A stretch of 64,000 nucleotides of DNA from a virus (taxonomy: Duplodnaviria; Heunggongvirae; Uroviricota; Caudoviricetes). The stretch lies in IMG/VR virus record IMGVR_UViG_2671180890_000004; one strand, 5' to 3'. The notes under the pieces were generated by a model. It did no database searches and was not told where the DNA came from. It saw only the letters and a program-made list of their open reading frames with translations. Numbering within the stretch: position 1 is the stretch's first letter; the number at the start of each line of letters is the position of its first letter. Positions 3,853-64,000 of the stretch are shown piece by piece. The position numbers were made by a program, and so were the translations under genes.

Positions 3853-3855
3853 CCA

Positions 3856-5625: not shown

Positions 5626-5635
5626 GGAGGGAAAC

Positions 5636-6802: not shown

Positions 6803-6804
6803 TA

Positions 6805-7074: not shown

Positions 7075-7101
7075 TCAGCACAACAGGAGGAGTCATAAAA
7101 T

Positions 7102-7632: not shown

Positions 7633-7728
7633 AAACAGCATATAAGCTATTTAAAACAGCCTTTTCTTTTTTATTCCGGCATCAGCGCCGTGGGCTTCTG
7701 CACGCCGGAAACAGAGGAGAATTAAATC

Positions 7729-7923
7729 ATGATATTTAAATGTATTCAGTGCGAGAGGGATATAACAGCCCTGCGTTTTCACAGCGCCATCGCCGTGATG
7801 TCCGGTAAGTACCACGTACCTGCAGTACGCGTCACCCTGGTCTGTCCGTACTGCAGTCAGCATTTTTCGGCAGACGTGCCCGTCATGGAATTCTCCCGCC
7901 CTGACAGGGAGGACTCGCAATGA
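7729..7923 (+). CDS. small Cys-rich (zinc-ribbon-like) protein
   Basis: CxxC...CPYC cysteine pairs in a 64-aa ORF. Confidence 0.4.
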   Translation: MIFKCIQCERDITALRFHSAIAVMSGKYHVPAVRVTLVCPYCSQHFSADVPVMEFSRPDREDSQ

Positions 7924-8192
7924 TTACCCCACAGGAAGCACGACAGCGCACCCGAACCCTTGTTGAACACTATGTCAACGAGTGTGAATGCCGCGACCTC
8001 ACCGATGTGAAGCACGTCCTGACGGCGCTAATCAGCATGACCGCTCAGGCCATTGTGGCGACCAACGGAAAGGCGGCTGCCCTGCAGGTACTGGTGAACA
8101 CACTCACCCACACGGCAGAGCACGATGTGCCGTACCGGATGGAAACCACTGCAGAAGGCGGCCTGAACATCACCGTCGACCGGAAACACTGA
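7920..8192 (+). CDS. hypothetical protein
   Basis: ORF with start overlapping the upstream stop (coupled). Confidence 0.4.
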   Translation: MITPQEARQRTRTLVEHYVNECECRDLTDVKHVLTALISMTAQAIVATNGKAAALQVLVNTLTHTAEHDVPYRMETTAEGGLNITVDRKH

Positions 8193-8201
8193 GGGCGCGG
8201 C

Positions 8202-8507
8202 ATGACACGGAACACCGAACTCACCCGCACCGCCCTCTACCGTCTGGCCCTGCAGCGTTTCGGGCCGGACGCACAGGCCCTGAAACTGACAGAAGAGGCC
8301 GCTGAACTGGCGGCCAGTGCCGCCCGCAACCTGAACGGACAGGGCAGCGAAAGTGACCTCGCGGCAGAGCTGGCAGACGTGGAAATCATGACAGAGCAGC
8401 TGCGCCTTCAGGGAATGGACCGGCTGATTGACTTCCACAAACAGAAAAAACTGGAACGCCTTGCCGCACGGCTGGGCGTCATGTACACCGGAGATACTGA
8501 ACAATGA
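8202..8507 (+). CDS. MazG-like nucleotide pyrophosphohydrolase domain protein
   Basis: EEAAELAA...ELADVEIM helix pair typical of MazG/NTP-PPase. Confidence 0.45.
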   Translation: MTRNTELTRTALYRLALQRFGPDAQALKLTEEAAELAASAARNLNGQGSESDLAAELADVEIMTEQLRLQGMDRLIDFHKQKKLERLAARLGVMYTGDTEQ

Positions 8508-9187
8508 CAGACCAGGATAAACACATTGAGAAACTGAAAAAGTTGCTGGCGCTGGCCGCATCCGGCAACCCTCACGAGGCCGCTCTGGCACTGCGCCGTG
8601 CCCGTAAACTGATGGATGTTCACGGCATCACACATTCCGACATCGCCATGAGTGATATTGATGAAACCATCAGTCACTACTGGCCGACAGGCAGCCTCCG
8701 TCCACCGCGCTACATGCTGGGCCTGATGAACATCATCCGCGAGGCATTTGGTGTTAACTCCATCATTCACCCCGGCACATATCCGGGTGTGGGGTTCTAC
8801 GGCAACCGGGAACGGGCTGCACTGGCTGCGTACACCTGGGAAGTGCTGGCCCGCCAGCTGAAAAAGGCGCGTCAGCAATATATCAGCGCACAGAACAAAA
8901 GAATAAAAACTGCCACCCGTACCAGCCGTGGTGACCAGTTTGCTGAAGGCTGGGTGCTGGCCGTTATCAGTGAAATACAGTCCTTCGCCCTGACCGATGA
9001 CGAACGTGAACTGATGCAGCAGTGGCTGGAACATAAATACCCGCAGACGCAAACCACCAGGGCGCGTAAACCGGGAAGAAGCCGCAATGGCGACGCCTCG
9101 CGCTATGCGGGGTTTCTTGAAGGGCAGAACGTCAGACTGCACCGCCCGGTCAGTGGGCAGGAACAACAGAAACTGGAGGCCAGATGA
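8504..9187 (+). CDS. DUF2786-like phage protein
   Basis: N-terminal KLKKLLALAASGNPHEAALALRRARKLM signature. Confidence 0.5.
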   Translation: MTDQDKHIEKLKKLLALAASGNPHEAALALRRARKLMDVHGITHSDIAMSDIDETISHYWPTGSLRPPRYMLGLMNIIREAFGVNSIIHPGTYPGVGFYGNRERAALAAYTWEVLARQLKKARQQYISAQNKRIKTATRTSRGDQFAEGWVLAVISEIQSFALTDDERELMQQWLEHKYPQTQTTRARKPGRSRNGDASRYAGFLEGQNVRLHRPVSGQEQQKLEAR

Positions 9188-9414
9188 TTACGCTATCAGG
9201 TAAAAGCCGGAAATTAAAAGCCTGCCGAATATCTGCCAGATACCTTTTTGCCCGCGCCTTTTTTAAGAACGTCAGGCCGGGGATCACAATTGGTGTTATT
9301 GCCGGACGCGAACAGGTTGAAAAATACATGTCAGGTGCATGGTGGAATAACGACCCTGTCATTGCTGCCCGTAATATTCATATCAGTTGGGGGGATATTC
9401 AGAATGACGGCTGA
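9184..9414 (+). CDS. hypothetical protein
   Basis: ORF with overlapping stop/start on both sides. Confidence 0.3.
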   Translation: MITLSGKSRKLKACRISARYLFARAFFKNVRPGITIGVIAGREQVEKYMSGAWWNNDPVIAARNIHISWGDIQNDG

Positions 9415-9619
9415 ATCTGTTGTATGTGCCCTGTTCTGGTATTGTTTTGTCGGTTGGTGTACTGCTGAACTGCACCGCCGTTCAGGGTTTTATTCACGTT
9501 ACAGTGGTGCTGGCTACTGGATTAGCTGGTCGGTGATGTTCCTGTGCTGGCCTGTGGCGCTTCCTTTATATGTCGATTATATCGGTGGCGCAGGTAAAAG
9601 GAGCAACGATGATGACTAA
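9404..9619 (+). CDS. small membrane protein
   Basis: Two hydrophobic helices (VVCALFWYCFVGW, WSVMFLCWPVALPLYV). Confidence 0.35.
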   Translation: MTAESVVCALFWYCFVGWCTAELHRRSGFYSRYSGAGYWISWSVMFLCWPVALPLYVDYIGGAGKRSNDDD

Positions 9620-10061
9620 ACAACGTCTTATCCAGCTCATTCATATTGCCCGTAATGAACTGGGTATGGATGAAGACACCTACCGCCAGATGTTACAGGG
9701 GCTGACCGGTAAAGCCTCAACCAAAGGAATGGATACCACACAACTAAACTGCGTGCTGGAATCCATGAAAAGGAAAGGCTTTCGCGTTAAGCCTGCCGGA
9801 AAAGCCAGCTCCGGTTTACCGCTGGATAACCATCCGCAGTCCAGGAAAATCCGTGCGCTATGGCTTGAAATGGCTGCTGCCGGCATTGTTCGTGACCGTT
9901 CAGAAAATGCATTAGCGCGGTGGATCAAGCGGGAAACGGGCATCAGCGCCCTGCGCTGGCTCAGTACTGAACAGGCAAGCAGTGTTATTGAGAAACTGAA
10001 GAAGTGGCAGCGCAGAGCTGCGGGAGTCAAACATGAGCGACCTGAATCAGTTTCGAAGTAA
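9609..10061 (+). CDS. gemA: GemA-like protein (Mu gp16 family)
   Basis: Size and position immediately upstream of mor; AAGGAG RBS. Confidence 0.55.
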   Translation: MMTKQRLIQLIHIARNELGMDEDTYRQMLQGLTGKASTKGMDTTQLNCVLESMKRKGFRVKPAGKASSGLPLDNHPQSRKIRALWLEMAAAGIVRDRSENALARWIKRETGISALRWLSTEQASSVIEKLKKWQRRAAGVKHERPESVSK

Positions 10062-10431
10062 AGGGCCGGAACTCCTGGTGGAGCTGGCACAGCATACCTC
10101 TGAGACCGTTCGCGAGATTATTGATATTGAGCCCGCAATTGCCGACCAGATTGGTCAGGCCGTCGCGAACCGAATGATGCAGGTCTGGGGCGGGCAAAAC
10201 GTTTATTTCCCGATGGGCATGGTATGGAAGGTCAGTCAGCGCGACCGGGAAATCTTCAGGGAGTTTAACGGACGCAACCACCACGAACTGGCCCGCAAGT
10301 TTGGTGTTTCGCTTCAGTGGGTCTACAGCGTGGTTAAGCGGGTCAGAAAAGAAGAACTGGATCGGATGCAGGGCAGGTTGTTTGATGAAGATCTGCCAGA
10401 GGAGACGAAAGACGTTAACAAATCCAGATAA
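10033..10431 (+). CDS. mor: Mor-family middle-operon transcription activator
   Basis: C-terminal HTH (HELARKFGVSLQWVYSVVKRVRK) and position after gemA. Confidence 0.7.
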   Translation: MSDLNQFRSKGPELLVELAQHTSETVREIIDIEPAIADQIGQAVANRMMQVWGGQNVYFPMGMVWKVSQRDREIFREFNGRNHHELARKFGVSLQWVYSVVKRVRKEELDRMQGRLFDEDLPEETKDVNKSR

Positions 10432-10476
10432 TTCCTGCTTGTTAAAGTCCTTTCAAAAATCTCCTTATTGTATAAA

Positions 10477-10507
10477 AGCACGGTAGACCCCTTACCGTGC
10501 TTTTTTT
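10477..10507 (+). terminator. rho-independent terminator after mor
   Basis: Stem GCACGGTA / TACCGTGC followed by T7. Confidence 0.6.
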
Positions 10508-10545
10508 ATGCTCTCTCTTTAGTATTCAGGATGCAGGGAGAAAAT

Positions 10546-11178
10546 ATGTTTGACGTTTCGTTGTTAAATCTGCCATGGGCAACACTGGTGACCCTGACCA
10601 GTGGCTATATTGGGTATTTTATTGCGAATGTGGGACTGAAGGATCACCACAAGCCCATTGAGGTGACTTTTTCTTCGCTGATTTTTGGCCTGACAGCAAT
10701 GATGGCTTACCAGGCTGTTATGTGGGCAGGTCTGAATGCCTGGCTGGCAACACCACCAGCACTTCTGTGTGCCCTTACATGCGGTGCGTGGTGGCGCAGG
10801 TACGGTCGCAAATGGATGTACAGATTACTGTGGAATAATGATATTTCATGGTCTGACGATACCAGCTCAGCATGGCAGGCAATGTTTGATCAAACAGGCT
10901 TCAGCGTTACCGAGGTCAGAGTGATTCTTCGCGATGGTTCCGGTATGATGTCACGGCTGCCAGGGAACTTTGAAGAGTGGCCTAACGGTCCGTTTACCCT
11001 GGGGAATAAAGGCGATATGGTTCTTTACGTCACGCACAGCAGCCCTTCAGGCAGTAACGAATGGGAAGAGTATAAAGGCGTGGTTGATAAGTACTGGGGA
11101 GCTCTGGCAACCTATATTCCAGCAGATCAGATTGCCAGAGTGGAGATCAGGCGCGTTCGTGCAACGAACGATGAATGA
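10546..11178 (+). CDS. membrane protein with C-terminal soluble domain
   Basis: ATG at 10546 with GGGAGA RBS; three or four N-terminal hydrophobic helices. Last gene before the gabP junction. Confidence 0.45.
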   Translation: MFDVSLLNLPWATLVTLTSGYIGYFIANVGLKDHHKPIEVTFSSLIFGLTAMMAYQAVMWAGLNAWLATPPALLCALTCGAWWRRYGRKWMYRLLWNNDISWSDDTSSAWQAMFDQTGFSVTEVRVILRDGSGMMSRLPGNFEEWPNGPFTLGNKGDMVLYVTHSSPSGSNEWEEYKGVVDKYWGALATYIPADQIARVEIRRVRATNDE

Positions 11179-11526
11179 TGTTTATTTTTTCCCTGGGGCA
11201 GGGGCTGCCGGCATAGTGGTTTTATTGGCAGAGGAAGACGATTCTCCTTTTCTACCGGAATCGCGCTCGAACGTCACGATGTGCTTGCTTTTGGGCTTTT
11301 CTGAGTAATCCAGGCTATCATGCTTATTGTTTTGAGTAGTCATTGGAATCATCCTTTTTGTTGCGGGTCATGTTTCAGCAAACTCGATTCTAAGTTGCCA
11401 GGAAGGATGATTTCAATGCCCGACTTATCTATCGTATAGCGGAAAAGAATTTCAGTTCTGTTCACCAGAACCCATGTTAACCCACTCCAATTCGTTATTT
11501 ATCTCACGGATCCCCCTTCATTTATC

Positions 11527-11913
11527 TCATGTCTGATCAGGAATGCCTGGAACCCATGAGTGCAGGATCATGGCGGCGATGTTGGCTTCAAGTGGGATAA
11601 CCAGTACCCAAAACCACCAGTACAACCAGCCGATGGTATAGCCCGCCCAGCGGCCAATGGCTTTATCGGCATAGGTGGAAAACGAACCGGTATCGGGCGT
11701 GGCAACCGCCATTTCCGCCAACATCCGCATAATCATAACCACCAGTAATCCGGCGAACAGATAGGCCAGTAATACCGCCGGGCCCGCTTCGGCGATGGCG
11801 ACGCTGGAACCGACAAACAGACTTGCGCCGATAACACCGGCAATAGACAACATGGTGACGTGGCGTGACTTCAGCCCGCCGCCTAACTCATGTGGTTGCG
11901 ATGATTGCCCCAT
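11527..11913 (-). pseudogene. gabP: gabP, truncated GABA permease (N-terminal ~125 codons only)
   Basis: Near-identical to the E. coli GabP N-terminus up to ...HSWVPGIP, then diverges (DQT-stop); the remaining ~340 codons are absent from the window. Confidence 0.85.
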
Positions 11914-17708: not shown

Positions 17709-17735
17709 ATAAAAAAGCCCGCATCAGCGGGCTTT
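17709..17735 (-). terminator. rho-independent terminator (minus strand)
   Basis: Stem AAGCCCGC / GCGGGCTT; the U-tract is on the minus strand (A-run 17710-17716). Confidence 0.4.
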
Positions 17736-17863
17736 AATGTCATAGGGAGTCGCGACTCCGTTGCGTATCCTTTTTTGTCTCCTCACCGTCTGGTCGGTGT
17801 CCTGCTGAGACTTATAACTTCCTGTTTTTGTTGGTGTAGTCCTTACACCGTCCAATCATTATT

Positions 17864-17890
17864 TGGTGGAGCTGGCGGGAGTTGAACCCG
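17864..17890 (-). other. ssrA: 27-bp copy of the 3' end of ssrA (tmRNA): prophage attachment-site core
   Basis: TGGTGGAGCTGGCGGGAGTTGAACCCG is the reverse complement of the ssrA 3' terminus; sequence beyond it is not ssrA, so this is an att repeat, not a gene. Confidence 0.7.
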
Positions 17891-18321
17891 TGTCCATAGT
17901 TATGTAATTCATTGAATTTAAATAGCCAAATATTGTTGATTTTACACGCGGCTCTTTTGCGGAACTTTTTCTGTCCTGTTACTGTCTTACTATTTATTTT
18001 AAAATAGTTTCATTTGGAATTAATGGTTTGTGGTTGCAGTTTCGGAGATAGATAGCATTTTTTGCTAAAAAATATTTTTATAAAAAATGTGTGTAAAAAT
18101 GATGTTATGCACAGATTTATACACAGAGGCTTTGTAATAAACCAGATTATTTTGGATAAGTTTGTTTTTTTGTGATTTGTCAACAATATTATTGACTCTT
18201 GTTACTAAAGTGAGTGTTTTCTAAGGTGGCCAGAAGTTGTCCCTTCATGTAATCTTATTAGCCATAAAGAACAAAAAATAATTCAACATCATTACCAACT
18301 ATTTGTAAGATAAGGTTTTTA

Positions 18322-19137
18322 ATGTTGCAGCCAGCAAAAAAAGCATCAGTTATTAGCGCGCGGCTAACTAAATACCTCAAAGATGGAGTGAGGATTGATG
18401 ACTTTAGCTTTAGAAGGATGTTACGTGAGATTGAAGCACTTAGAGATCCTGTCTCTGAGGACTATCTTTTAGCGTTGGTCTATGGTGCACATGGTCAAGT
18501 GAATGAGGCGATAGGCTTCTTTGAGCGTTCCTTGCAGGTATGCCATAATGAGGTTGTTGCAAAGAATTTTCTTGTTTTCTTGTCAGATTACGGTACGTTG
18601 AAGAAAAGCTTTGAAACAAGCATTAAGCTTGCTGAAAGCTTCATATCCCCGTTTATTTATCTTCAAGCTTATGAAAACTCCCTCTTTATGGGGAAGATGG
18701 CGTTGGCGGAGAAGTATTTCCAGTCATACTCTAAATTGTTCGGAGATAAGGAGCCTGAAAAAATGGACAACCATCTTGATGAAGTTGTTTCCCAGGTCGA
18801 ATCCTTTAAGCAACGTGCCGATCTTTCTGGTTTAGAATATGAACTTATTTTCAATAATGTAGCCAATGTCATGGATTCTCAGAAGGTTCATCTTTCGGGA
18901 ATGCGTTTTTATAATATTTCGGAAGAGAAAGTGAATGCGATTGTATTCATGACAAAGTCTTCTGATGCTGAACAAATCGCTGATATGAATATTGAGCTTG
19001 CTTTTTCAATGGCTGAGCACGATTGTTTAGTCGGTAAAGATTTTGCTGTTTGGTTTGAATGTAAAGACACACATATTGAGCAGAATGCTATCTCCGAATT
19101 AGGTCTGATTACCCGGAGGGTTGCACATGCCGGTTAA
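18322..19137 (+). CDS. hypothetical cargo protein (271 aa), first gene of att-int cassette
   Basis: AT-rich ORF between the att core and int; no motif recognised. Confidence 0.5.
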   Translation: MLQPAKKASVISARLTKYLKDGVRIDDFSFRRMLREIEALRDPVSEDYLLALVYGAHGQVNEAIGFFERSLQVCHNEVVAKNFLVFLSDYGTLKKSFETSIKLAESFISPFIYLQAYENSLFMGKMALAEKYFQSYSKLFGDKEPEKMDNHLDEVVSQVESFKQRADLSGLEYELIFNNVANVMDSQKVHLSGMRFYNISEEKVNAIVFMTKSSDAEQIADMNIELAFSMAEHDCLVGKDFAVWFECKDTHIEQNAISELGLITRRVAHAG

Positions 19138-19510
19138 TAGTCAAGATTTTCTCGGTTTTGCAAAAGACTGTCATCAACGTAATGACGAAATCGGCTATCG
19201 AAATGCTATAGCAAGATCCTACTATGGCGCTTACCATCATGTCTTGCCTTGTATGGTAAACGGGCCGAAAGACAGTCATCAGGGGCTAATCAATTATTTG
19301 CAGGGCGATGCTTCAAGAGGAAGTGAAGTATATGAAGCTAGATATCTAAAAGGGATTAGTTTTATCCTGAGTCAACTTAAAGCTCAGAGGATTGTTGCAG
19401 ACTATCGACTTGATCAATCGGTCACTTCTAAACAGTCTGAAGTTGCGATTCTAACAACTGAGAGGCTCTTTGCTAAGTGTACGGAAATGCTTAAATCGAG
19501 AGCCTCCTAA
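19127..19510 (+). CDS. hypothetical cargo protein (~128 aa), coupled to upstream gene
   Basis: ATG at 19127 with GGAGGG RBS, overlapping the upstream stop by 11 nt; contains an R-x6-H segment (RSYYGAYHH) that could be HEPN-like (speculative). Confidence 0.45.
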   Translation: MPVNSQDFLGFAKDCHQRNDEIGYRNAIARSYYGAYHHVLPCMVNGPKDSHQGLINYLQGDASRGSEVYEARYLKGISFILSQLKAQRIVADYRLDQSVTSKQSEVAILTTERLFAKCTEMLKSRAS

Positions 19511-19517: not shown

Positions 19518-19539
19518 AGCCACTTAAGTGGCTTTTTTT
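19518..19539. terminator. bidirectional terminator between cargo operon and int
   Basis: Stem AGCCACTT / AAGTGGCT followed by T7. Confidence 0.5.
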
Positions 19540-20696
19540 GTGATATTGCTGGTCGTATTACCGTCATATTCCTTTAAATATGAACCATAATGACGAAATA
19601 ACATTTCCGGCCCTTTATGCCCCATTTGAGCTGCAAGCCAAAACAGGTTTGCTCCCCGGCTGATATGGCGGGTGGCGAATGTATGCCTAGTTTGATATGG
19701 ATTTCTGTAACGAATACCTGCTTTTCGCAATGTTGGCACCCATGCTTTTTTCCTGATTGCATCAGCACTTGCCCAGGGCTTATTGGTCTTTGGATCTTCA
19801 AAGACAGTAGCATCCTTCATGAATGTAAATGGCTTCTGATTTATCAGCGCCAACATTGCTTCTTCAGTCAGTTCAACTTTACGGGTACCGGCTTTTGTCT
19901 TTGTCCCTTTGATAACACCGACAACACTTGCGCTCTGGACATGGGCAGTTTTTCCAACAAAGTCGATATCACGCCATCGAAGGGCACATAATTCAGAACT
20001 ACGCAGGCCTGTATGTATAGCGAACCGGAACAGATTTTCCCATTGTTTTTTTCCGGCTGCTGCTAGTAATGCATCAACTTCTGCTGGTGATAGCGGATCA
20101 ACCACGTAGCTGCTTTCTGCTTCTGACTTATCACTTTGGTAGCGCGAAGCAGTTACCAACGATACGGGGTTAATTTGAAGTACCCCATCGGTTACGGCTT
20201 CATCAAGTGCTGACCGCAGGAAAGATAACTGGTTGCGAATTGTTTTTAAGGTCGTTTTCTGGCTTTGAATCCACGCTTTCAGGATTGCTGGTGTTAATTC
20301 ACTTGCAGGGCAAATGTGGAGTGAGGCTAACGCACTACGGCATTTTTTATAACCACCAATCGTAGAGGGTGAAAGTTTTCTTGTTTCGCAGATTTCAAGA
20401 TATTCGTCCAGGTACATCTTTACCGTTTTGCCTGCAGCAGCATTACCAAAAATTTTCAAACGAGCAGAACGGGGAAAATATTCTGCATAAATGAATGTTC
20501 CCCTTTCGATCTTATTATGGATTTCGCCGAGTGTACGCTCGGCGTATTTAATGTTCTTTGGTGTTACTTCCAGATTGGAAAGCGGCTCACGACATCTAAC
20601 TCCTTTGTAGGTGAAAGTTATATTGATCGTTTCTCCCTGGCGGTGTTTCCTGATTGTTACGCCGCGCGGTAGTTTGAGCAGTTTTGTCTGGCCCAT
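19524..20696 (-). CDS. int: tyrosine recombinase (phage integrase)
   Basis: C-terminal catalytic region with conserved R (LRSSELCALRWRD), HxxR (HTFATRH) and tyrosine near LFRHYGSY; adjacent to the att core. Confidence 0.85.
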   Translation of the reverse strand: MGQTKLLKLPRGVTIRKHRQGETINITFTYKGVRCREPLSNLEVTPKNIKYAERTLGEIHNKIERGTFIYAEYFPRSARLKIFGNAAAGKTVKMYLDEYLEICETRKLSPSTIGGYKKCRSALASLHICPASELTPAILKAWIQSQKTTLKTIRNQLSFLRSALDEAVTDGVLQINPVSLVTASRYQSDKSEAESSYVVDPLSPAEVDALLAAAGKKQWENLFRFAIHTGLRSSELCALRWRDIDFVGKTAHVQSASVVGVIKGTKTKAGTRKVELTEEAMLALINQKPFTFMKDATVFEDPKTNKPWASADAIRKKAWVPTLRKAGIRYRNPYQTRHTFATRHISRGANLFWLAAQMGHKGPEMLFRHYGSYLKEYDGNTTSNITKKAT

Positions 20697-22531: not shown

Positions 22532-23356
22532 TCAGGCGGTAAAAGTACCAATAAAGGTTTCTACTTTGCTGTCCTTGAATTTCTCAACAAGCAGATCACG
22601 AAATTCGTTAGCCATTTCTTCCTGCACTGCTTCCAGCTGAATAATGCGCAGAACCAGTACAGGACGATCGCCAGTGATAATGCTGAGGCGTAATTTAAAC
22701 GGACGTTCTTTCAGGCCTTCAAACGGAACGCATTTAAATTCAAATGTCACTGGCATAATATCTTTGGTCTTCGCTTCGACAGACTCCATCAGGGAGCGTT
22801 TGCCGCTGAAGTCATTGTCTTCAAAATCAGCGGTCTGGTTTGCTTCAATCGTGATTTTACGGACTGCCGCAGCCGCTTTTGTTGCCTGAATGACATCACC
22901 ATTAGCATCAAAGCCCACAAGGTAGTCGGCCCAGTCTTCAATCCATTCTGCCAGTGACTTCTGGGAGTTACGCTCGCCGTTAACAGACAACAGAGCAGAG
23001 AACGGTGCTGTCTTTTTCAGTTTGAGAGTGGCGGTGTTATCTGCGTGACCAGGCTCATCAATAGTACCCAGGTTAAGCACACTGACGGCACGCATATTAT
23101 CGGCATCGATAAAGCAGCGGGTGCCTTCATCCGCAAGATCTTTAGAATAACGGGTAAAGTCATCGATGCTGGCAGTGGAAAGCGCACCACGGAAACGGAA
23201 GCGATTTAAATTAAATTTTTCCAGATCATGAATGCGGAAATTTTCAGGTAATGCCACTGCGTCGGCACCAATCTTACTGATAATTTCATTAACACCCTGA
23301 GCAGAAATAAGGGCATGGATTTGATTAATTGCGGTTGCGTCTAAGTTCTGAGACAT
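22532..23356 (-). CDS. hypothetical early-left protein (274 aa)
   Basis: ORF only; tentative recollection of YfdQ-like prophage proteins, unverified. Confidence 0.45.
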
Positions 23357-27700: not shown

Positions 27701-28191
27701 TCATGAGTCTGTTAAATGACGTTCAGAAATTCATTGAAGCCCATCCGGGGTGTACTTCCGGAGACATTGCGGATGCTTTTGCAGGTTACTCACGGCAGCG
27801 CGTTCTGCAGTCTGCAAGCAAGTTACGTCAGAGTGGGCGTGTGGCTCACCGTTGTGAAGGAGATACACGCAGACATTTTCCGCGCCTGACTGAGAGAGCG
27901 CAGGAACCGGAACCACAACCAGTTCGAGAAACCAGATCTGTGCGCAATTTCTATGTCGGCACTAACGATCCTCGGGTGATTTTGTGCCTGACCCGCCAGG
28001 CGGAAGAACTGGAGTCCAGGGGCTTATACCGTCGTGCTGCAACCGTGTGGATGGCGGCATTCCGTGAAAGCCACTCCCAGCCAGAACGAAACAATTTTCT
28101 GGCGCGTCGTGAGCGGTGCTTACGGAAAAGCAGCAAGCGCGCTGCATCGGGTGAAGAGTGGTATCTGTCAGGGAATTACGTGGGGGCTTAA
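27697..28191 (+). CDS. hypothetical protein (164 aa)
   Basis: ORF coupled to the O-like gene. Confidence 0.4.
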   Translation: MIMSLLNDVQKFIEAHPGCTSGDIADAFAGYSRQRVLQSASKLRQSGRVAHRCEGDTRRHFPRLTERAQEPEPQPVRETRSVRNFYVGTNDPRVILCLTRQAEELESRGLYRRAATVWMAAFRESHSQPERNNFLARRERCLRKSSKRAASGEEWYLSGNYVGA

Positions 28192-28844
28192 TGAGTAATA
28201 AATATTGCCAGGCGCTGGTGGAACTGCGGAACAAACCAGCCCATGAACTGAAGGAAGTGGGCGATCAGTGGCGCACGCCGGACAACATTTTCTGGGGAAT
28301 TAACACCCTGTTTGGCCCGTTTGTTCTGGATCTGTTTACTGACGGTGATAACGCCAAATGTGCCGCGTATTACACGGCGGAAGATAACGCGCTGGCGCAT
28401 GACTGGTCAGAACGTCTTGCGGAGCTTAAAGGTGCTGCCTTTGGTAATCCCCCATACAGCCGCGCCAGTCAGCATGAGGGGCAATACATCACCGGCATGC
28501 GTTACATCATGAAACATGCCAGTGCCATGCGTGATAAGGGCGGGCGCTATGTTTTCCTGATCAAAGCGGCCACCAGCGAAGTGTGGTGGCCGGAAGATGC
28601 AGATCATATTGCTTTTATTCGCGGGCGTATTGGTTTTGAACTGCCTGCCTGGTTTATACCGAAGGACGAGAAGCAGGTGCCGACAGGCGCTTTCTTCGCT
28701 GGTGCTATTGCTGTTTTCGACAAGACCTGGAAGGGACCGGCAATCAGCTACATCGGGCGTGATGAACTTGAGGCATGTGGTGAGGCGTTTCTGGCGCAGG
28801 TTCGCCAGCAGGCGGAAAAACTGGTCAGGGAGATGGCGGCATGA
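28191..28844 (+). CDS. phage N6-adenine DNA methyltransferase
   Basis: NPPY catalytic motif (GNPPYS); start at MSNKYCQ. Confidence 0.7.
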   Translation: MSNKYCQALVELRNKPAHELKEVGDQWRTPDNIFWGINTLFGPFVLDLFTDGDNAKCAAYYTAEDNALAHDWSERLAELKGAAFGNPPYSRASQHEGQYITGMRYIMKHASAMRDKGGRYVFLIKAATSEVWWPEDADHIAFIRGRIGFELPAWFIPKDEKQVPTGAFFAGAIAVFDKTWKGPAISYIGRDELEACGEAFLAQVRQQAEKLVREMAA

Positions 28845-31381: not shown

Positions 31382-31738
31382 TTGTGGAGAAAGTTGATGC
31401 GTGATATGTATGAAGTATTGGACCGCTGGGGTGCATGGGCTGCAGCAGATAACAGTGGTGTGGACTGGCAGCCTGTTGCTGCAGGGTTTAAAGGTTTACT
31501 ACCTCATGGAAAGAAAACACGCCAACAATGCGATGATGATGAAGGAATCATGATTGACAGCTGTGTTGCGCGATTGCGGAAATATAAGCCCGAAGAGTAT
31601 GAGTTGGTTATTGCTCATTTTGTTATCGGCATCTCACTAAGAACTATTGCAAAGAAGCAGAAGTGTTCTGATGGGACAATAAGAAAAGAGTTGCAAACAG
31701 CTCTTGGTTTTCTGGATGGTGTGCTTTCAATGTTGTAA
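31382..31738 (+). CDS. late-gene antiterminator Q (QuuD/Q21 type)
   Basis: MRDMYEVLDRWGAWAA...WQPVAAGFKGL...CDDDEG matches the QuuD-type Q family (recalled); likely start at 31397. Confidence 0.7.
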   Translation: MWRKLMRDMYEVLDRWGAWAAADNSGVDWQPVAAGFKGLLPHGKKTRQQCDDDEGIMIDSCVARLRKYKPEEYELVIAHFVIGISLRTIAKKQKCSDGTIRKELQTALGFLDGVLSML

Positions 31739-31742
31739 TATT

Positions 31743-31766
31743 AGGGGGGATTACCCCCCTTTTTTT
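31743..31766 (+). terminator. rho-independent terminator immediately after Q
   Basis: Stem GGGGGG-atta-CCCCCC followed by T7. Confidence 0.7.
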
Positions 31767-32299
31767 CTCTGTTGCTTTAATAAAATTTTAATATTTTGTC
31801 TGATTATGATGAGGCAATGTAATAAAAGAAATACCGTTAGTATTGCAAGCCATACGCAAAATAAGCATGCATATAAATTAGTTGAAAGCCCAATAGTGAA
31901 TTGTGCAATTGCTGTTGTGATAGAACATAATATTGATGTATTAATAAATGAGGATAAATTGTCTAAAGGTTTATAAAGTACACTATCATTGATTTTGTCA
32001 ATAGGTATACCAGTGGCAATGCTATAAATTTCCTTATATTCCTGAGTTGCAAAAACCTTATCGCGTAAATTTATTATGACAAAGGTATGCAGGCTCAATA
32101 AAAATGAGCCCACGGAAATAAAACCGGAGAAGAGATAGCCTCGTAAGTTTTTATGATAAAAATCAAAAAAGTTAACACTTACTTTAGGTGTGTTTCTGTA
32201 CAATAGGTAAAGTGCAAGCAATGCCAGGATCGAGAATGCAAGCAGTGTAAGGTACTGATACCTCAATCTTTTATTTATTAGCCATTCATATAAAGGCAT
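31751..32299 (-). CDS. four-TM membrane protein (182 aa), second gene of AT-rich cassette
   Basis: Four hydrophobic helices; overlaps the upstream gene by 14 nt; very AT-rich. Confidence 0.6.
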   Translation of the reverse strand: MPLYEWLINKRLRYQYLTLLAFSILALLALYLLYRNTPKVSVNFFDFYHKNLRGYLFSGFISVGSFLLSLHTFVIINLRDKVFATQEYKEIYSIATGIPIDKINDSVLYKPLDNLSSFINTSILCSITTAIAQFTIGLSTNLYACLFCVWLAILTVFLLLHCLIIIRQNIKILLKQQRKKGG

Positions 32300-33212
32300 T
32301 TTTATTCGTCCCGTTCAGCATTTCTTCTTTTATCATATCAAAAACAGGGTTTGTTGTATAATTATCGTTTGTCAATCCATTGACTTTATCGGCAATTATA
32401 TCGAAATCGTATGTTTCAAAAAAAACAGGGCAGTTCATAAAATCAATGGTTTTTTCTATTCCTGCATGGTTTACTGCAATAACCTGTGCTTTAGCAACTC
32501 CACTCATAGAATTATAAATATTTGAAAGATTCTGAGATAGTTGTTGCACTTTTGTTCTGTCGCTAGAATTAAAATTCATATCTATTGTGGTGGTGTTAAC
32601 AAATTGTTCAAGCGCAGTCATTGGTCCACCTTTAAAATCTATATAATTAAATTTAAAGCTTGTGCTTTTAATCTCTTTGAATTGACATAAAACACTCTGA
32701 ATGTTGTTTTTATTTGTCATAAGGCTGAAAGTCAGTCTTTCTTTGTATTTTTTATTTATTGCAGTTACTTCTTTTTGTTTTGGTTTATCACCAAGTTTTT
32801 TTATTTCTTCTTTATTTTGATTTCTGATAAATTCATTACTTATTGTTTCTAAATGAGAAAAGAGAGTGTTCAGACTGCATGAACCGTGGTGATACATATA
32901 GAGACCAGAAAGATTAGATTTTTTAATTAAGAAAAAGTTGAAATTAGCAAGTTTGTCACTTCCTTGAAGATCTTCAATTTTAAGCTGGAATTTACCATCA
33001 ACAAATTGCGACTTACAGTTCTTTTTTTGGTTTCTGAATGTGACAACTAATCCATAATAGAAATCATTCACATCCGAAATGAGAATTTTACGAGTATAGT
33101 CTGTGCGACTGTGTTCTCTGTTTGATGCGTTGATAAAAGCATTCATTACGTCAACGGTATTAATATTTTTGTTATTGTTATTTATTGTAAATCCTATGCT
33201 TCTAACTTTCAT
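32286..33212 (-). CDS. hypothetical protein (308 aa), first gene of AT-rich cassette
   Basis: Asn/Lys-rich, AT-rich ORF with no recognised motif; convergent with Q. Confidence 0.6.
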   Translation of the reverse strand: MKVRSIGFTINNNNKNINTVDVMNAFINASNREHSRTDYTRKILISDVNDFYYGLVVTFRNQKKNCKSQFVDGKFQLKIEDLQGSDKLANFNFFLIKKSNLSGLYMYHHGSCSLNTLFSHLETISNEFIRNQNKEEIKKLGDKPKQKEVTAINKKYKERLTFSLMTNKNNIQSVLCQFKEIKSTSFKFNYIDFKGGPMTALEQFVNTTTIDMNFNSSDRTKVQQLSQNLSNIYNSMSGVAKAQVIAVNHAGIEKTIDFMNCPVFFETYDFDIIADKVNGLTNDNYTTNPVFDMIKEEMLNGTNKNAFI

Positions 33213-33477
33213 GTGTATTCCAGGACCGACTAAAGATAGCGAGAATGGGGACGCATAGTTTATAAAAATCCTAACGCGTACGCAAAAAGTATTATATCGT
33301 GTTAAGAGTGGTTACTTCGCCACACAACTTAAACCCGCCGCTGAGCGGTTTTTTTGTACCTGTAAACCTTGTGCAGTACAGTAAACACGCTGGTGGTCGT
33401 GAATACTGGCTTTTTATCTTGCTGGCTTTTTAGACAAGAGTTATTGGTATGTCATGTTAACCAGAAGGGAAAAGACA

Positions 33478-33830: not shown

Positions 33831-34883
33831 ATGAAAAATACTGTAAAAATAAACAGTGTTGATTTAATCAACGCTGATTGCCTGCATTTTATTCAGTCCC
33901 TGCCTGATGATTCCATTGACCTGATTGTTACCGATCCGCCTTACTTCAAGGTGAAACCCAACGGTTGGGACAATCAGTGGAAAGGGGACGAAGATTACCT
34001 TAAGTGGCTGGACCACTGTCTGGCCCAGTTCTGGCGGGTGTTGAAACCTGCCGGAAGCCTTTACCTGTTCTGTGGGCATCGCCTGGCATCTGATATTGAG
34101 ATCATGATGCGTGAACGTTTCAACGTGCTTAACCATATCATCTGGGCGAAGCCGTCCGGACGTTGGAATGGGTGTAATAAAGAAAGTCTGCGCGCATATT
34201 TTCCTGCCACAGAGCGCGTTCTGTTTGCTGAACATTACCAGGGGCCATATCGCGGCAAAAGTGACGGCTATGCGGCAAAAGAAAGGGAACTCAAACAGCA
34301 CATAATGGCACCGCTGATATCGTATTTCAGGGATGCTCGTGCCGAACTGGGTATAACGGCAAAACAAATTGCCGAAGCCACAGGTAAGAAAAATATGGTT
34401 TCCCACTGGTTTGGTGCCAGTCAGTGGCAGTTGCCGAATGAGGCTGACTATCGGAAGTTACAGGCACTGTTTTCCCGTATAGCGGCAGAGAAGTTTCAGG
34501 AACAACAACTGGAACAACCACACCACCAGCTGGTGGCATCTTATGATTCACTGAATCGCAAATATTCTGAATTGCTGGATGAGTTTAAATCTCTCCGGCG
34601 CTATTTCTCCGTATCAGTCTCCGTGCCTTATACCGATGTCTGGATGCATAAACCCGTTCAGTTCTACCCGGGTAAACATCCGTGTGAGAAACCAGTGGAT
34701 ATGCTCAGGCAAATAATCAATGCCAGTAGTCGACCTGGTGATCTGGTTGCTGATTTTTTTATGGGATCCGGTTCCACAATAAAAGCAGCAATGGCGCTGG
34801 GGCGTCGGGCCTTAGGTGTTGAGCTTGAGTCAGAGCGGTTTAACCAGACAGTGAAAGAGATAAACGAGCTGGTGGGGAAATAA
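33831..34883 (+). CDS. orphan DNA methyltransferase (N6-adenine/N4-cytosine, beta class)
   Basis: Catalytic TDPPYF near the N-terminus and AdoMet motif DFFMGSGST near the C-terminus. Confidence 0.8.
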
Positions 34884-59490: not shown

Positions 59491-60074
59491 TGGCATTCAG
59501 AATGAGTGAACAAGCACGGACCATAAAAATTTATAATCTGCTGGCCGGAACTAATGAATTTATTGGTGAAGGTGACGCATATATTCCGCCTCATACAGGT
59601 CTGCCAGCAAACAGTACCGATATTGCACCACCAGATATTCCGGCAGGCTTCGTGGCTGTTTTCAACAGTGATGAGGCATCGTGGCATCTCGTTGAAGACC
59701 ATCGGGGTAAAACGGTTTATGACGTGGCTTCCGGCGACGCGTTATTTATTTCTGAACTCGGTCCGTTACCGGAAAATGTTACCTGGTTGTCGCCGGGAGG
59801 GGAATATCAGAAGTGGAACGGCACAGCCTGGGTGAAGGATACGGAAGCAGAAAAACTGTTCCGGATCCGGGAGGCAGAAGAAACAAAAAACAGCCTGATG
59901 CAGGTAGCCAGTGAGCATATTGCGCCACTTCAGGATGCTGTAGATCTGGAAATCGCAACGGAGGAAGAAACCTCATTGCTGGAAGCCTGGAAAAAGTATC
60001 GGGTGTTGCTGAACCGTGTTGATACATCAACTGCACCGGATATTGAGTGGCCAGAAGAACCAGACACCGTGTAA
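59490..60074 (+). CDS. tfa: tail fibre assembly protein
   Basis: Size and position after stf. Confidence 0.75.
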
Positions 60075-60076
60075 GC

Positions 60077-60124
60077 AAAAAAGAAAAACCGCAGACACGA
60101 CGTATGCATGACGTGCTGCGGTTT
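60077..60124. terminator. long hairpin between tfa and the GIY-YIG gene
   Basis: Stem AAACCGCAG...CTGCGGTTT with an A-run on the plus side (U-tract on the minus strand). Confidence 0.4.
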
Positions 60125-60143
60125 ATGCTTATCACTTAAAGAC

Positions 60144-60962
<819 letters not shown>

Positions 60963-61323
60963 TCATTGCAAGGGCTCACAACCAGTAGTGTTGAGAAAAC
61001 CATCGGAGAAATGAGGCTAAGCCTTTGAATTTACATAGTACAAAAAAGATACTTTTCCTCATAATGTGAGCTAATTTTATGTTTCGTTTGATGATTGGAC
61101 CGGTCTCGAAAACCGTAGACACATAGTATGCGTTAATTTATGAACAAACTACTTGTCTGCTGTTTTTCTGTCATTAGTCGTATATAGAATGATTCTCTAT
61201 GCCTAACAAAGCATCACCAGTGCTAGATTACGTTGTAGTCACTGTTTAAATATCCAGATAAAACATTTCCTTCTGGGTTGAATGAGTGATAAAGTTTCAC
61301 CCATTAGACCCCTTGGAGGAATT

Positions 61324-62757
61324 ATGTCTGAATTTGAAGTGTTGGCACAGCATCTGCTGAAGGAAGCCGAGGCGGAAGAAAAGCTGCGACAGGAAAATGA
61401 TAAAAAGCTTATCGAGAAAGTGCTGGAAATCTATGATCAGAAGTATGTGGCTGAATTACTGAGAAAAGTCGGAAAAAATGAGTGGAGCCGTGAAACCATT
61501 AACCGCTGGATTAATGGCAAGTGTTTACCAAAATCGTTGACTTCAGTAGAAGAGTCTCTTCTGCGTAAGATGCTACCAGAACCACCTGCAAACCATCCGG
61601 AATATGCTTTCCGCTTCATTGACTTATTTGCTGGAATTGGAGGGATACGGAAAGGTTTTGAGGCCATTGGAGGCCAGTGTGTTTTTACCAGTGAATGGAA
61701 TAAAGATGCTGTGCGTACATACAAGGCCAACTGGTTTAACGATGAACAGGTGCATAAATTCAATCTCGATATTCGGGAAGTCACGCTGAGTGATAAAACC
61801 GATGTATTGGAAACGGATGCTTATGCATATATTGATGAGCATGTGCCGGATCATGATGTGCTTCTTGCGGGGTTCCCGTGCCAGCCATTTAGCCTTGCTG
61901 GTGTTAGTAAGAAAAACTCACTTGGTCGTGCGCATGGTTTTGAATGTGAAGCACAAGGAACACTTTTTTTTGACGTGGCACGTATTATACGAGCAAAAAA
62001 ACCGGCAATTTTTGTGCTGGAAAATGTCAAAAATCTGAAGAGCCATGATAAGGGTAAAACTTTCAAAGTCATTATGGAGACCCTTGACGAGCTGGGCTAC
62101 GAAGTTGCCGATGCTGCAGAAATGGGAAAAAACGATCCAAAGATTATCGATGGGAAGCATTTTTTGCCTCAGCATCGTGAACGTATTGTTCTGGTCGGAT
62201 TTAGACGAGATCTGAATATTCACAAGGGGTTTACCTTGCGTGATATCAGTCGTTTTTATCCGGAACACCGCCCATCATTTGGTGAATTGCTGGAGCCTGT
62301 AGTCGACAGTAAATATATACTTACGCCAAAACTATGGGAGTACCTTTATAACTACGCCAAAAAGCATGCAGCCAAGGGGAATGGTTTTGGCTTTGGGTTG
62401 GTCAATCCTGAGAATAAGGAAAGCATTGCACGCACACTTTCTGCCAGATATCACAAAGACGGATCAGAAATTCTTATTGATCGTGGTTGGGATATGGCAA
62501 CGGGAGAGGCTGACTTTATGAATGAGAGTAATCAGGCTCGTCGACCACGCAGGCTGACTCCCCGAGAGTGCGCACGCCTTATGGGATTTGAAAAACCTGG
62601 AGGGAAACCATTCCGTATTCCGGTTTCAGATACTCAGTCATATCGGCAGTTCGGTAACTCAGTTGTGGTGCCAGTATTTGAAGCTGTTGCCAGACTTCTG
62701 GAACCCTATATCCTCAAAGCTGTTTCTGCTGATGCTGGTAAGACTGGGCAGCCTTGA
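61324..62757 (+). CDS. DNA cytosine-5 methyltransferase, Dcm/M.EcoRII family (CCWGG)
   Basis: C5-MTase motifs [27 protein letters not shown] and high recalled similarity to Dcm/M.EcoRII; GGAGGA RBS at start MSEFEV. Confidence 0.85.
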
Positions 62758-62763
62758 GAACAT

Positions 62764-62786
62764 CTCCCGGCCTTTTAAGCCGGGAG
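62764..62786. terminator. bidirectional terminator between convergent M and R genes
   Basis: Stem CTCCCGGC / GCCGGGAG with a cttttaa loop. Confidence 0.5.
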
Positions 62787-62791
62787 TCAGC

Positions 62792-64000
62792 CTATGATAG
62801 TTCAGCGTAAAGCTCTATCAGCTCAGTAATGAATGCTCCGAGCGTTATTAATTCTTCTCTAACTGCTTCTGGGTATTTTTTATGTAAAGTTGATGGTACA
62901 ACGAGTCTGACACCCGCATCTTTCATTTCTCGGTATTGTGCTGAAGAAACACCTTCTTGCAGTGTAAATAAATGTACCTGATGGATTTTATCTGCTTCAT
63001 TCAGTATCTGACGCCAGCGATCTTTGCAGGTGGTCTTTACTGCCAGCATACGTAAGTTTTCTACAGGAAATTCAACGTTATGATATGCCTCTGCTGAAGG
63101 AAACAGGAAATCTGGTTTTTTATTACCTTCAGTAACTGCCTGAGTGGAGAAATGCCGTAGTCCGTGCTCGATAAAAAGCTTCTCTAGGTGAAGTTCAAGT
63201 GATTTGCCTGCCCTTGATTTACGTCGATTACTGACAGAGTTGGCTAATGCAATAAACTCATCTACAGAATCGAATCCTTTCTTAATAATATCAAGAACAT
63301 GTAATTCCTCGACGAGTAGAAAAATATCATACTCGACACGCCGACGGTCAATCAGTTGCTCATCTGGATCCTTGGAGTTTTTAGCATAATGGCCAGCAGC
63401 ATATTGAATAATTTCGTTTCCAGAAGGAAAACGCTTCTTCCAGTCTTCAGGAATAACATATTTATGATTTACTGGAGTTTGCTGAAGAGACAATCCGCCC
63501 AAAATTTGTCCGGCAGGGCCGGAAATTAGGGTTCCAGGTATGATTTCGCCAATAGCAGACTCGATGATATCCTCTTCATCGGGATTGACGCAGACCCATA
63601 TATCTACCTCGGAACAGTCAGTGTTCTGTTCGTTTAACCTGAAAGCAAGAATTGTGAGGGCTCCTGTATTTTCAGGGTTCTGTAATGGACTTCCTCTCCC
63701 CCAGCGCGTAATTCTTTTTTCGTTTCGGGTCTTACCAAAATAACGGTTGTTGTAATAAATTGCGCGTGCTTGGGTATCAGGGCAATCATGGGATGATACA
63801 TGCGCAGTAAGGAAGACTGAAGGGTTCAGTTCGCGAGTATGATTGATAGATGGAAAAAGCTTTTCAACGATATTTGAGGGGATATAAAGTCCGACCTGAT
63901 GGCCACCTGTTGCGCCTGTGTCGTTTGCAGAAAGGCGTTTGATGTAGATAAAGTAATTCCCGCTTGCGATATCAAGCAGCCAGTTATGAAAAACCGACAT
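62792..64000 (-). CDS. EcoRII-like type II restriction endonuclease
   Basis: Recalled near-identity to R.EcoRII along its length; convergent with a Dcm-family methylase; start codon is the last three bases of the window. Confidence 0.75.
   Translation of the reverse strand: MSVFHNWLLDIASGNYFIYIKRLSANDTGATGGHQVGLYIPSNIVEKLFPSINHTRELNPSVFLTAHVSSHDCPDTQARAIYYNNRYFGKTRNEKRITRWGRGSPLQNPENTGALTILAFRLNEQNTDCSEVDIWVCVNPDEEDIIESAIGEIIPGTLISGPAGQILGGLSLQQTPVNHKYVIPEDWKKRFPSGNEIIQYAAGHYAKNSKDPDEQLIDRRRVEYDIFLLVEELHVLDIIKKGFDSVDEFIALANSVSNRRKSRAGKSLELHLEKLFIEHGLRHFSTQAVTEGNKKPDFLFPSAEAYHNVEFPVENLRMLAVKTTCKDRWRQILNEADKIHQVHLFTLQEGVSSAQYREMKDAGVRLVVPSTLHKKYPEAVREELITLGAFITELIELYAELS

Follow-up and report, generated by a model that had tools for sequence, protein, structure and literature searches.

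[quoted passage not shown] The archetype resides on enterobacterial conjugative plasmids and consists of a C5-cytosine methyltransferase (M.EcoRII) and an endonuclease (R.EcoRII; PDB 1NA6, 3HQF, 3HQG), encoded by convergent genes with a short spacer between them and without a C-protein gene. Residues responsible for recognition and catalysis by the endonuclease have been described (PMC2770665), and the methyltransferase represses its own gene, according to the part of PMC12707154 that cites Som & Friedman (1994). The chromosomal methylase Dcm shields cells from being killed by EcoRII, and DNA that comes from dcm+ donors is spared EcoRII restriction (PMC3424554; PMC11602122). A further system of relevance here is CMoRE, also termed PD-T4-3, a single-gene type IV restriction system with a GIY-YIG nuclease that cleaves the 5hmC and glucosyl-hmC DNA of T-even phages (PMC12923530; bioRxiv 10.1101/2024.12.20.629700), DNA that evades conventional R-M through its cytosine modification (PMC12923530).

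The locus described here lies at the right-hand end of the window, the whole 64,000-nt stretch of DNA that was analysed, and contains a convergent pair of genes, M (61324-62757, forward strand, 477 aa) and R (62792-64000, reverse strand, 402 aa). The first-pass annotation had proposed an EcoRII-like CCWGG R-M pair, and this identification is upheld by domain architecture, by 86-91% identity to EcoRII-type proteins, by conserved functional residues and by locus context; the gene coordinates, orientations, convergent layout and endonuclease length of about 402 aa that it gave likewise agree with the open reading frames and with RefSeq starts. Homology searches for the pair covered PDB, Pfam, NCBIfam and PADLOC, and on these sequence comparisons the family membership of both proteins is far beyond chance.

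R is predicted to be an EcoRII-family restriction endonuclease of type IIE, with a B3-like effector domain at the N-terminus (EcoRII-N; PF09217, residues 16-163, E 4e-61) followed by a catalytic domain (EcoRII-C; PF09019, residues 227-391, E 2e-71). A phmmer comparison with crystallised R.EcoRII (1NA6) spans residues 1-401 (E 1e-242) at 86% identity over 401 aa, which places the endonuclease firmly among EcoRII relatives. Of the residues published as acting in catalysis, in recognition, in the base-flipping pocket or in the effector domain, all that were checked are kept (29/29; residue list from PMC2770665). The catalytic motif is undisrupted, with all four active-site residues present, where Glu271, Asp299, Lys324 and Glu337 in EcoRII numbering correspond to E269, D297, K322 and E335 in R. 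The CC:GG recognition triplet Lys328-Asp329-Arg330, together with Asn260, is identical, as is the flipped-base pocket formed by Arg222, Glu225, Tyr226, Phe229, Arg265 and Ala266. In the effector domain, the base contacts His36, Gln37, Arg94, Glu96 and Arg98 and the backbone contacts are also identical, at 15 of 15 residues. From this identity and these conserved residues, R is predicted to cleave CCWGG in a manner that needs a second, activating site. The start codon of R forms the final three bases of the window (read as cat on the forward strand) and coincides with the RefSeq start, so that, as already pointed out in the first-pass annotation, the promoter lies beyond the window; relative to plasmid R.EcoRII, R starts two codons later (402 versus 404 aa).

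M belongs to the M.EcoRII clade of C5-cytosine DNA methyltransferases and carries an N-terminal DNA_meth_N domain (PF18284, residues 28-84, E 7e-27) ahead of the catalytic domain (PF00145, E 4e-78), with further matches to PRK10458 in NCBIfam (927 bits) and to MTase_II in PADLOC (E 4e-230). The full conserved set of C5-methyltransferase motifs is there: I (FxGxG) at residue 102, IV (PCQ) at 185, VI (ENV) at 233, VIII (QxRxR) at 283, IX at 412 and X (GNSV) at 444. Its ATG is preceded by a GGAGG Shine-Dalgarno sequence at a distance of 5-6 nt, and while an in-frame alternative ATG at 61282 would give a 491-aa protein, RefSeq uses the 477-aa version in identical genomes. The identity of M is 91% to an M.EcoRII-type enzyme from a plasmid, where the endonuclease paired with that enzyme is itself 96.5% identical to 1NA6. 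Its identity to Dcm, with which it shares the PRK10458 subfamily and presumably the target site, is 69%. By region the two relatives separate more sharply: in the variable, target-recognition (TRD) region, identity to the plasmid enzyme is 94% against 65% to Dcm, and in the N-terminal domain it is 87% to the plasmid enzyme but only 33% to Dcm. The similarity of the TRD region indicates that M presumably targets the inner cytosine of CCWGG, and the DNA-binding, repressor-type extension at its N-terminus is predicted, by analogy with M.EcoRII, to serve in autoregulation. Unlike Dcm, which is an orphan with an overlapping vsr gene, M is paired with an endonuclease and is prophage-borne. The open reading frames of the window include no vsr-like frame overlapping the 3′ end of M, because R lies 34 bp downstream; these two features, and a separate dcm-like match in genomes that carry the pair, rule out M as an orphan Dcm with vsr.

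The arrangement of the two genes equals that of the plasmid EcoRII locus. The stop codons of M (TGA, 62755-62757) and R (TAG, 62792-62794) face each other across a gap of 34 bp, which therefore leaves no room for an extra open reading frame. Within the gap is a GC-rich hairpin with an 8-bp stem (62764-62786; CTCCCGGC, loop CTTTTAA, GCCGGGAG), and the first-pass annotation took this to be a shared bidirectional terminator. That claim does not stand, since a U-tract beside the stem is absent on both strands; the hairpin was not called by the terminator scan, and it folds at -20.6 and -20.4 kcal/mol with z-scores of only -1.9 and -1.5, so that a canonical intrinsic bidirectional terminator is rejected. 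Plasmid EcoRII keeps a hairpin at the equivalent place despite its diverged flanks. DNA homology to the plasmid locus runs from 61242 to the equivalent of window position 64068, with about 80% nucleotide identity over both coding and both upstream regions and with the intergenic hairpin included. Ahead of M the similarity ends after 82 bp and ahead of R after 68 bp, and the flanks beyond these limits are unrelated. The conserved 82 bp ahead of M (61242-61323, forward strand) contain the GGAGG sequence and an inverted repeat, CCAGA...TCTGG, and presumably hold the promoter and operator of M, as suggested by this conservation and by analogy with M.EcoRII autoregulation (PMC12707154). Neither M nor R is preceded by a sequence that a simple scan recognised as a consensus sigma-70 promoter. 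A terminator is located 84-108 bp upstream of the R start codon.

The pair is classically plasmid-borne and here chromosomal at a prophage end, as the first-pass annotation stated and as the plasmid homology and att repeats bear out. The prophage is a lambdoid element of about 46 kb, integrated in Escherichia coli at the 3′ end of ssrA, the tmRNA gene. Its attL-side repeat (17712-17895) consists of the last ~30 nt of ssrA (17866-17897, with one mismatch) and ~154 nt of downstream sequence, and matches another locus (L001, 23184-23367) at 92% identity over 185 bp, overlapping the annotated ssrA 3′ end there. A tRNA/tmRNA scan of the window made no call, because the ssrA fragment is too short. 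The attR partner repeat begins ~83 bp past the window end, and M and R thus sit between attL and attR, inside the prophage boundaries. Describing the pair as lying next to prophage cargo was therefore right as to the prophage location but an understatement, as the pair itself is cargo within the att boundaries, beside CMoRE. A circular 43.7-kb element (L003) was considered as the excised form of the prophage and rejected, as its structural module is a different one, with sheath and baseplate genes, and its integrase is only 22% identical.

Temperate phages carry accessory-gene ('moron') slots at their att-proximal ends. The R-M module fits this pattern in that it occupies a variable cargo slot (61132-64000, on to the equivalent of ~64065), which lies between the tail-fibre assembly gene and attR, has a GC content of 42.8% versus ~50% for the prophage, and differs in content between near-identical prophages. 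In a related ssrA prophage (L005), with 98-99% identity on both sides, the slot is filled instead by ImmA/IrrE, HTH and BRO-N genes. Where this locus differs from ordinary moron slots is that the block, with its relic ssrA-downstream sequence, recurs at 98% identity in unrelated myovirus-type prophages and at another chromosomal site. The left border of the block common to other prophages falls at 60086, inside a hairpin-forming inverted repeat (60072-60138) between the tail-fibre assembly gene, which ends at 60074, and CMoRE. A search for direct and inverted repeats around the cassette returned short, mostly chance matches, except for hairpin-like sequences at the module junctions. CCWGG occurs 93 times in the prophage, which is 0.70 of the Markov expectation and approximately equal to the base-composition expectation. 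No phage-specific avoidance of the site was found, with the flanking chromosome no richer in sites than the prophage; depletion is no greater in the prophage than in the chromosome, and there is therefore no compositional signature of selection by R.

Beside the R-M pair, on the reverse strand, is a gene for CMoRE/PD-T4-3 (60144-60917), which the first-pass annotation had missed. It matches the PADLOC PD-T4-3 model over its full length (E 7.6e-140), its product is ~97% identical, again over the full length, to the crystallised CMoRE of E. coli O157:H7 (PDB 9U75; also 9U7U), and the GIYxY-YIG tyrosines Y17, Y19 and Y31 are present in the translation, with no notable difference from the characterised protein. 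CMoRE is found without the R-M pair in ~750 genomes, and its linkage to the pair is therefore optional; given these genomes and plasmid EcoRII loci that lack CMoRE, it is rejected as an obligate part of the R-M unit. Other methyltransferases in the window are distributed differently from the three orphans previously assigned to the flanking prophage. Two do belong to it: a Dam-type N6-adenine methyltransferase (28158-28844, forward strand; PF05869, E 1e-45; PHROG 111) and an N6/N4 DNA methyltransferase (33831-34883, forward strand; PF01555, N6_N4_Mtase, E 1e-42; PHROG 67), the latter placed just upstream of the lysis genes and annotated in strain YF-1 as a 'site-specific DNA-methyltransferase' before essD/rrrD. 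The third, a D12-class enzyme (1061-1825), lies in a separate Mu-like prophage (window positions 1-11540) inserted in gabP. For annotation, the right end of the prophage is best described as a small island of defence genes, with the 'three orphan methylases' split over two prophages.

The distribution of the cassette is broad in E. coli. Identical or near-identical copies of M and R are present in about 243-262 complete genomes, and the block with CMoRE occurs in about 243 of the 5426 complete genomes; as phage-borne cargo, an EcoRII-type system is thus found in ~4-5% of them. Contigs with such copies number at least 1000, and the exact proteins already carry annotations as type II endonuclease and cytosine methylase on more than 1000 contigs; PADLOC recognises both. 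The EcoRII-type cassette is matched by 647 plasmid records. None of the sequences in the phage collection matched the cassette at the nucleotide level, and at the protein level only distant EcoRII-like genes of 38-40% identity appeared, one set by Burkholderia phage KL3 and the others by two fecal phage contigs. A dcm-like identity match occurs in 5366 of the 5426 genomes, and each of the 30 carrier genomes listed has a second, dcm-like match in addition to the cassette.

Taken as a whole, the locus, in which both open reading frames are intact, is very probably a functional EcoRII-type type II R-M system that recognises CCWGG and belongs to the accessory cargo of the lambdoid prophage at the ssrA 3′ end. 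By analogy with characterised EcoRII, M would methylate the inner cytosine in each strand of CCWGG at C5, while its N-terminal DNA-binding domain would repress the M promoter. R would be transcribed towards M from a promoter in the ~83 bp that follow the window end and separate its ATG from the strong terminator, which would shield R from ssrA read-through. The endonuclease itself would be an autoinhibited dimer, in which cleavage waits until the N-terminal effector domain has occupied an additional CCWGG site; only then would the C-terminal PD-(D/E)XK domain flip the central base pair out and cut. DNA whose sites are few or far apart would therefore escape. In combination with its neighbour, the pair could form a two-layer restriction island, where R cuts unmethylated CCWGG DNA and CMoRE cuts the hmC-modified DNA of T-even phages. 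Because every listed carrier genome also has a dcm-like match, the pair is probably unable to addict its host and would be able to restrict only DNA that arrives from dcm-negative sources. The 9-14% divergence of M and R from the archetype may have altered kinetics or regulation.

Other readings of the same genes place their value elsewhere. M and R could be mainly a selfish addiction module that stabilises the prophage by post-segregational killing, in place of a defence role; EcoRII is documented as such a killer (PMC3424554; PMC11602122), and the module is found in a mobile element and moves between prophages as a unit. Against this, the same papers report that chromosomal Dcm neutralises that killing, and with a dcm-like match in all 30 listed carriers and in nearly every complete genome, prophage loss should be harmless in most hosts. 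A defence hotspot agrees better with the presence alongside of CMoRE, a genuine anti-phage gene, and with the other cargo found in this slot in related prophages, and we consider addiction as the main function unlikely. Less likely again is that M is the useful gene, pre-methylating the 93 CCWGG sites of the phage against EcoRII-type restriction in new hosts, with R a passenger or silent. The number of sites and the two further orphan methyltransferases of the prophage do suggest methylation-based anti-restriction, EcoRII-type systems are common on enterobacterial plasmids, and plasmid-borne dcm-type methylases give ~2700-fold protection against EcoRII (PMC11602122). However, host Dcm already supplies CCWGG methylation in nearly all E. 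coli, and R is undisrupted, has lost none of its functional residues and accompanies M in ~243 genomes; an unused toxic nuclease gene would be expected to decay. That the specificity has drifted, for example to CCNGG as in the related Ecl18kI and SsoII, with no resulting redundancy with Dcm, is highly improbable: in its favour are the protein divergence of 9-14% and the detection of Ecl18kI and PspGI as distant relatives of R, but the match to these two is marginal (E about 1e-4). Further against it, K328-D329-R330, N260 and the pocket residues R222, E225, Y226, F229, R265 and A266 are all identical to EcoRII, as are the residues, Q37 among them, with which EcoRII-N reads the central T:A pair, and the M variable region is 94% identical to the plasmid methylase.

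Tentatively, the ~4.2-kb CMoRE-M-R block with its relic ssrA-downstream, att-derived sequence may be a portable two-layer restriction island, passed between unrelated lambdoid and myovirus-type temperate phages, possibly by accretion and capture at ssrA, and persisting in dcm+ E. coli. With the family long described, the locus has little discovery value, and its modest interest lies in phage-borne EcoRII-type cargo coupled to CMoRE in a slot that swaps its contents. If the portable island is real, its R-M half would neither addict the host nor restrict E. coli-grown DNA, which would imply another selected role, possibly the exclusion of DNA from dcm-negative donors, coverage of phage DNA that is replicating and not yet fully methylated, or a synergy with the CMoRE enzyme. 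In this respect, coexistence with the isospecific Dcm provides a natural setting in which to ask what purpose an R-M system serves when the host already covers its specificity.

The EcoRII-like restriction-modification pair named in the first-pass annotation is real and convergent. From the ORF listing and a direct reading of 60800-64000, the methyltransferase gene M occupies 61324-62757 on the plus strand (477 aa) and the endonuclease gene R occupies 62792-64000 on the minus strand (402 aa), with their stop codons 34 bp apart. An alternative in-frame ATG at 61282 would extend M to 491 aa, but the ATG at 61324 is preferred, as the sequence reading places a GGAGG ribosome-binding site 5-6 nt upstream of it. 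The R ATG is, as had been noted, the reverse complement of the final three bases of the window, and RefSeq uses the same start for each gene in identical genomes. [quoted passage not shown] Functional residues were taken from the EcoRII-DNA co-crystal paper (PMC2770665) and comprise the catalytic residues E271, D299, K324, and E337, the CC:GG readers K328, D329, R330, and N260, the base-flipping pocket R222, E225, Y226, F229, R265, and A266, and the effector-domain contacts of R.EcoRII; R is identical to EcoRII at all of them (29/29). Because of the 1NA6 match and these identities, R is an EcoRII relative with an unbroken catalytic motif, and neither objection foreseen in the annotation, an unrelated enzyme or a disrupted motif, applies.

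M carries DNA_meth_N and C5 DNA_methylase domains (Pfam), all of the C5 motifs I, IV, VI, VIII, IX, and X, and a match to the Dcm/PRK10458 subfamily (NCBIfam, 927 bits). Its identity is 69% to 3ME5, a Dcm-type enzyme of known crystal structure, and 91% to a plasmid EcoRII-type methylase whose partner endonuclease is itself 96.5% identical to 1NA6. The N-terminal regulatory domain of M shares 87% identity with the plasmid enzyme and only 33% with Dcm, while the variable, target-recognition region is 94% identical to the former and 65% to the latter. Since these region-wise identities favour the plasmid enzyme, M is placed by sequence in the M.EcoRII clade and not in that of the resident Dcm. 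By every criterion that sequence can address, the pair belongs to the EcoRII family and is no orphan Dcm, and CCWGG specificity and two-site activation are predicted from this membership; the Pfam domains, the 86-91% identities, the residues, and the locus context all support the original interpretation, with two minor corrections. The first of these concerns the gap between the genes, which holds a hairpin with an 8-bp GC stem (62764-62786) that had been read as a shared bidirectional terminator. Neither strand has a U-tract, the terminator scan does not report the hairpin, and its stability exceeds that of shuffled sequences only modestly (z -1.9 and -1.5). Plasmid EcoRII has a hairpin at the same place, although the flanking bases diverge, and the element is better described as a conserved hairpin with a putative function than as a canonical bidirectional intrinsic terminator.

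Many E. coli chromosomes carry the 3.1-kb R-M region at 100% identity. In that of strain YF-1, 235 bp separate the R start codon from the 3′ end of ssrA (tmRNA), beyond which come smpB and ratA. A 185-bp copy in the window (17712-17895) is 92% identical to YF-1 sequence that starts 83 bp past the R ATG and extends into the last ~30 nt of ssrA, and the two copies are the attL and attR repeats of a prophage inserted in ssrA. Between them lie the integrase (19524-20696), the repressor region, Q, and the lysis, terminase, head, tail, and tail-fibre genes; thus the pair, earlier described as next to prophage cargo, has a prophage setting but is inside the prophage, at its extreme right end. Homology to plasmid EcoRII runs from 61242 to window-equivalent 64068 (~80% nucleotide identity; 647 plasmid records matched), which, together with the att repeats, upholds the reading of a normally plasmid-type system residing on a chromosome at a prophage end. 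A strong canonical terminator on the minus strand, 84-108 bp upstream of the R ATG, stands between R and read-through from ssrA. The R promoter must be within the ~83 bp just past the window end, of which 68 bp have a conserved counterpart in plasmid EcoRII; no consensus promoter is detected in these ~83 bp, nor upstream of M.

Three orphan methyltransferases had been attributed to the flanking prophage, and the ssrA prophage does contain two of them, at 28158-28844 a Dam-type phage enzyme and at 33831-34883, immediately upstream of the lysis genes, an N6/N4 methylase. The third, a D12-class adenine methylase (1061-1825), belongs to the end of a separate, Mu-like transposable prophage (1-11540) with a DDE transposase, an ExeA/MuB-like ATPase, Gam, and Mor. 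This element is inserted in gabP, an insertion absent from all genomes among the best matches, and 100%-identical copies occupy different chromosomal sites in other strains, e.g. in sfaA. Elsewhere, a minus-strand two-gene unit (31751-33212; 182 and 308 aa) between the Q antiterminator region and the N6/N4 methylase, within a stretch (~31494-33294) unmatched in YF-1, lies where morons typically sit and could represent cargo not yet characterised; neither ORF has a match in Pfam or PADLOC, and the sole match of the 308-aa ORF is PHROG 2802 (unknown function). Two plus-strand ORFs (18322-19510; 271 and 129 aa) lie between attL and the integrase, at the opposite cargo end of the prophage; their only matches are to function-unknown PHROGs (17809, 5176), and neither Pfam nor PADLOC gives a match. 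YF-1 also has a ~10.7-kb island between glaH/csiD and attL (L002 11119-21795), containing an amylase pseudogene, tRNA-Ile, IS3, and a second integrase. The window lacks this island; there, homology on the glaH side ends at 17378, and the ssrA-end repeat starts ~330 bp further on, at 17712.

Adjoining the pair is a minus-strand gene for a 257-aa GIY-YIG protein (60144-60917), which was not recognised in the first-pass annotation as CMoRE. It has a full-length PADLOC match to PD-T4-3 (E 7.6e-140) and is ~97% identical to the crystallised E. coli O157:H7 CMoRE (PDB 9U75), while RefSeq calls it only a 'LEM-3-like GIY-YIG domain-containing protein' or 'hypothetical'. CMoRE, a modification-dependent endonuclease of type IV, degrades the 5hmC and glucosyl-hmC DNA of T-even phages, whose hypermodified DNA escapes conventional R-M systems (PMC12923530), and its activity extends to a native clinical isolate (bioRxiv 10.1101/2024.12.20.629700). 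Linkage to the R-M pair is optional, as ~750 genomes hold CMoRE without it.

Because a related lambdoid prophage at ssrA (L005) matches at 98-99% identity as far as 61131 and then from 64066 onward, yet carries ImmA/IrrE, HTH, and BRO-N genes in place of the pair, the interval from 61132 to ~64065 is identified by this comparison as an exchangeable cargo slot. The alternative cargo (L005 5043-7503) consists of two small hypothetical genes, an ImmA/IrrE metallopeptidase with an HTH protein, and a BRO-N protein, and could be another defence or regulatory module. The slot and its neighbour (60086-64000) have a GC content of 42.8%, against ~50% for the phage. A larger block, from 60086 to ~64262, includes CMoRE and ssrA-downstream-like sequence and recurs at 98% identity in a circular myovirus-type element of 43.7 kb (L003), whose integrase shares only 22% identity with that of the ssrA prophage in the window, and in myovirus-type prophages at ssrA (L008) and near paoCD (L009). 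In L003, decayed copies of the ssrA 3′ end and downstream sequence bracket the block (19096-19192 and 23165-23355; 72% and 89% identical to the YF-1 attR region), which hints that the CMoRE-M-R block was captured from an ssrA integration site. Related hairpins of the AAAACCGCAG...CTGCGGTTT type mark cargo-module junctions on both sides of CMoRE (window 60072-60138 and 61100-61170; L005 5020-5058; L003 19170-19215), and the breakpoint with prophages lacking the pair (61131/61132) falls within one such hairpin. These hairpins may serve both as terminators and as joints at which modules are exchanged by recombination. Of 5426 complete E. coli genomes, 243 have the full block and 128 the R-ssrA junction, and M at ≥99% identity gives 262 records.

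How the pair acts is inferred from the characterised EcoRII family. M would methylate C5 of the inner cytosine in CCWGG and would use its N-terminal domain to repress its own promoter, as summarised for M.EcoRII (PMC12707154). R would be an autoinhibited type IIE dimer, in which an additional CCWGG copy must first bind the N-terminal domain, whereupon the C-terminal domain would flip the central base pair and cleave, following the autoinhibition, two-site activation, and base flipping described for EcoRII (PMC2770665). CCWGG occurs 93 times in the prophage and 3 times in the cassette, with no avoidance in the prophage beyond the level in the chromosome; therefore, self-protection would rely on methylation. 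A second, dcm-like copy is present in 30/30 carrier genomes among the matches listed, and 5366/5426 complete E. coli genomes have a dcm-like identity match. Dcm neutralises EcoRII post-segregational killing (PMC3424554), and DNA from dcm+ donors is not restricted by EcoRII, with restriction of a plasmid without its own dcm-type methylase ~2700-fold higher from a dcm- donor (PMC11602122). Given the carriers' dcm-like copy and these published effects, it is likely that in natural hosts the R-M half keeps out only DNA of dcm-negative origin and does poorly as an addiction module.

The system, its family, and the exact proteins are already known from public annotation and defence-system libraries; R and M are each found on at least 1000 contigs, under the names 'type II restriction endonuclease' and 'DNA cytosine methyltransferase'. 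Where CMoRE is linked to the pair, the two restriction activities would be complementary, with R directed against unmethylated CCWGG DNA and CMoRE against T-even hypermodified DNA. We consider it a tentative and rather doubtful proposition that the block is a portable island with two layers of restriction, acquired by capture at ssrA, and that its role in dcm+ hosts is something other than addiction, and even if true its interest would be modest. Mildly new, in a descriptive sense, are the location in an ssrA prophage, the exchangeable slot, the coupling to CMoRE, and the block's spread across unrelated prophages.
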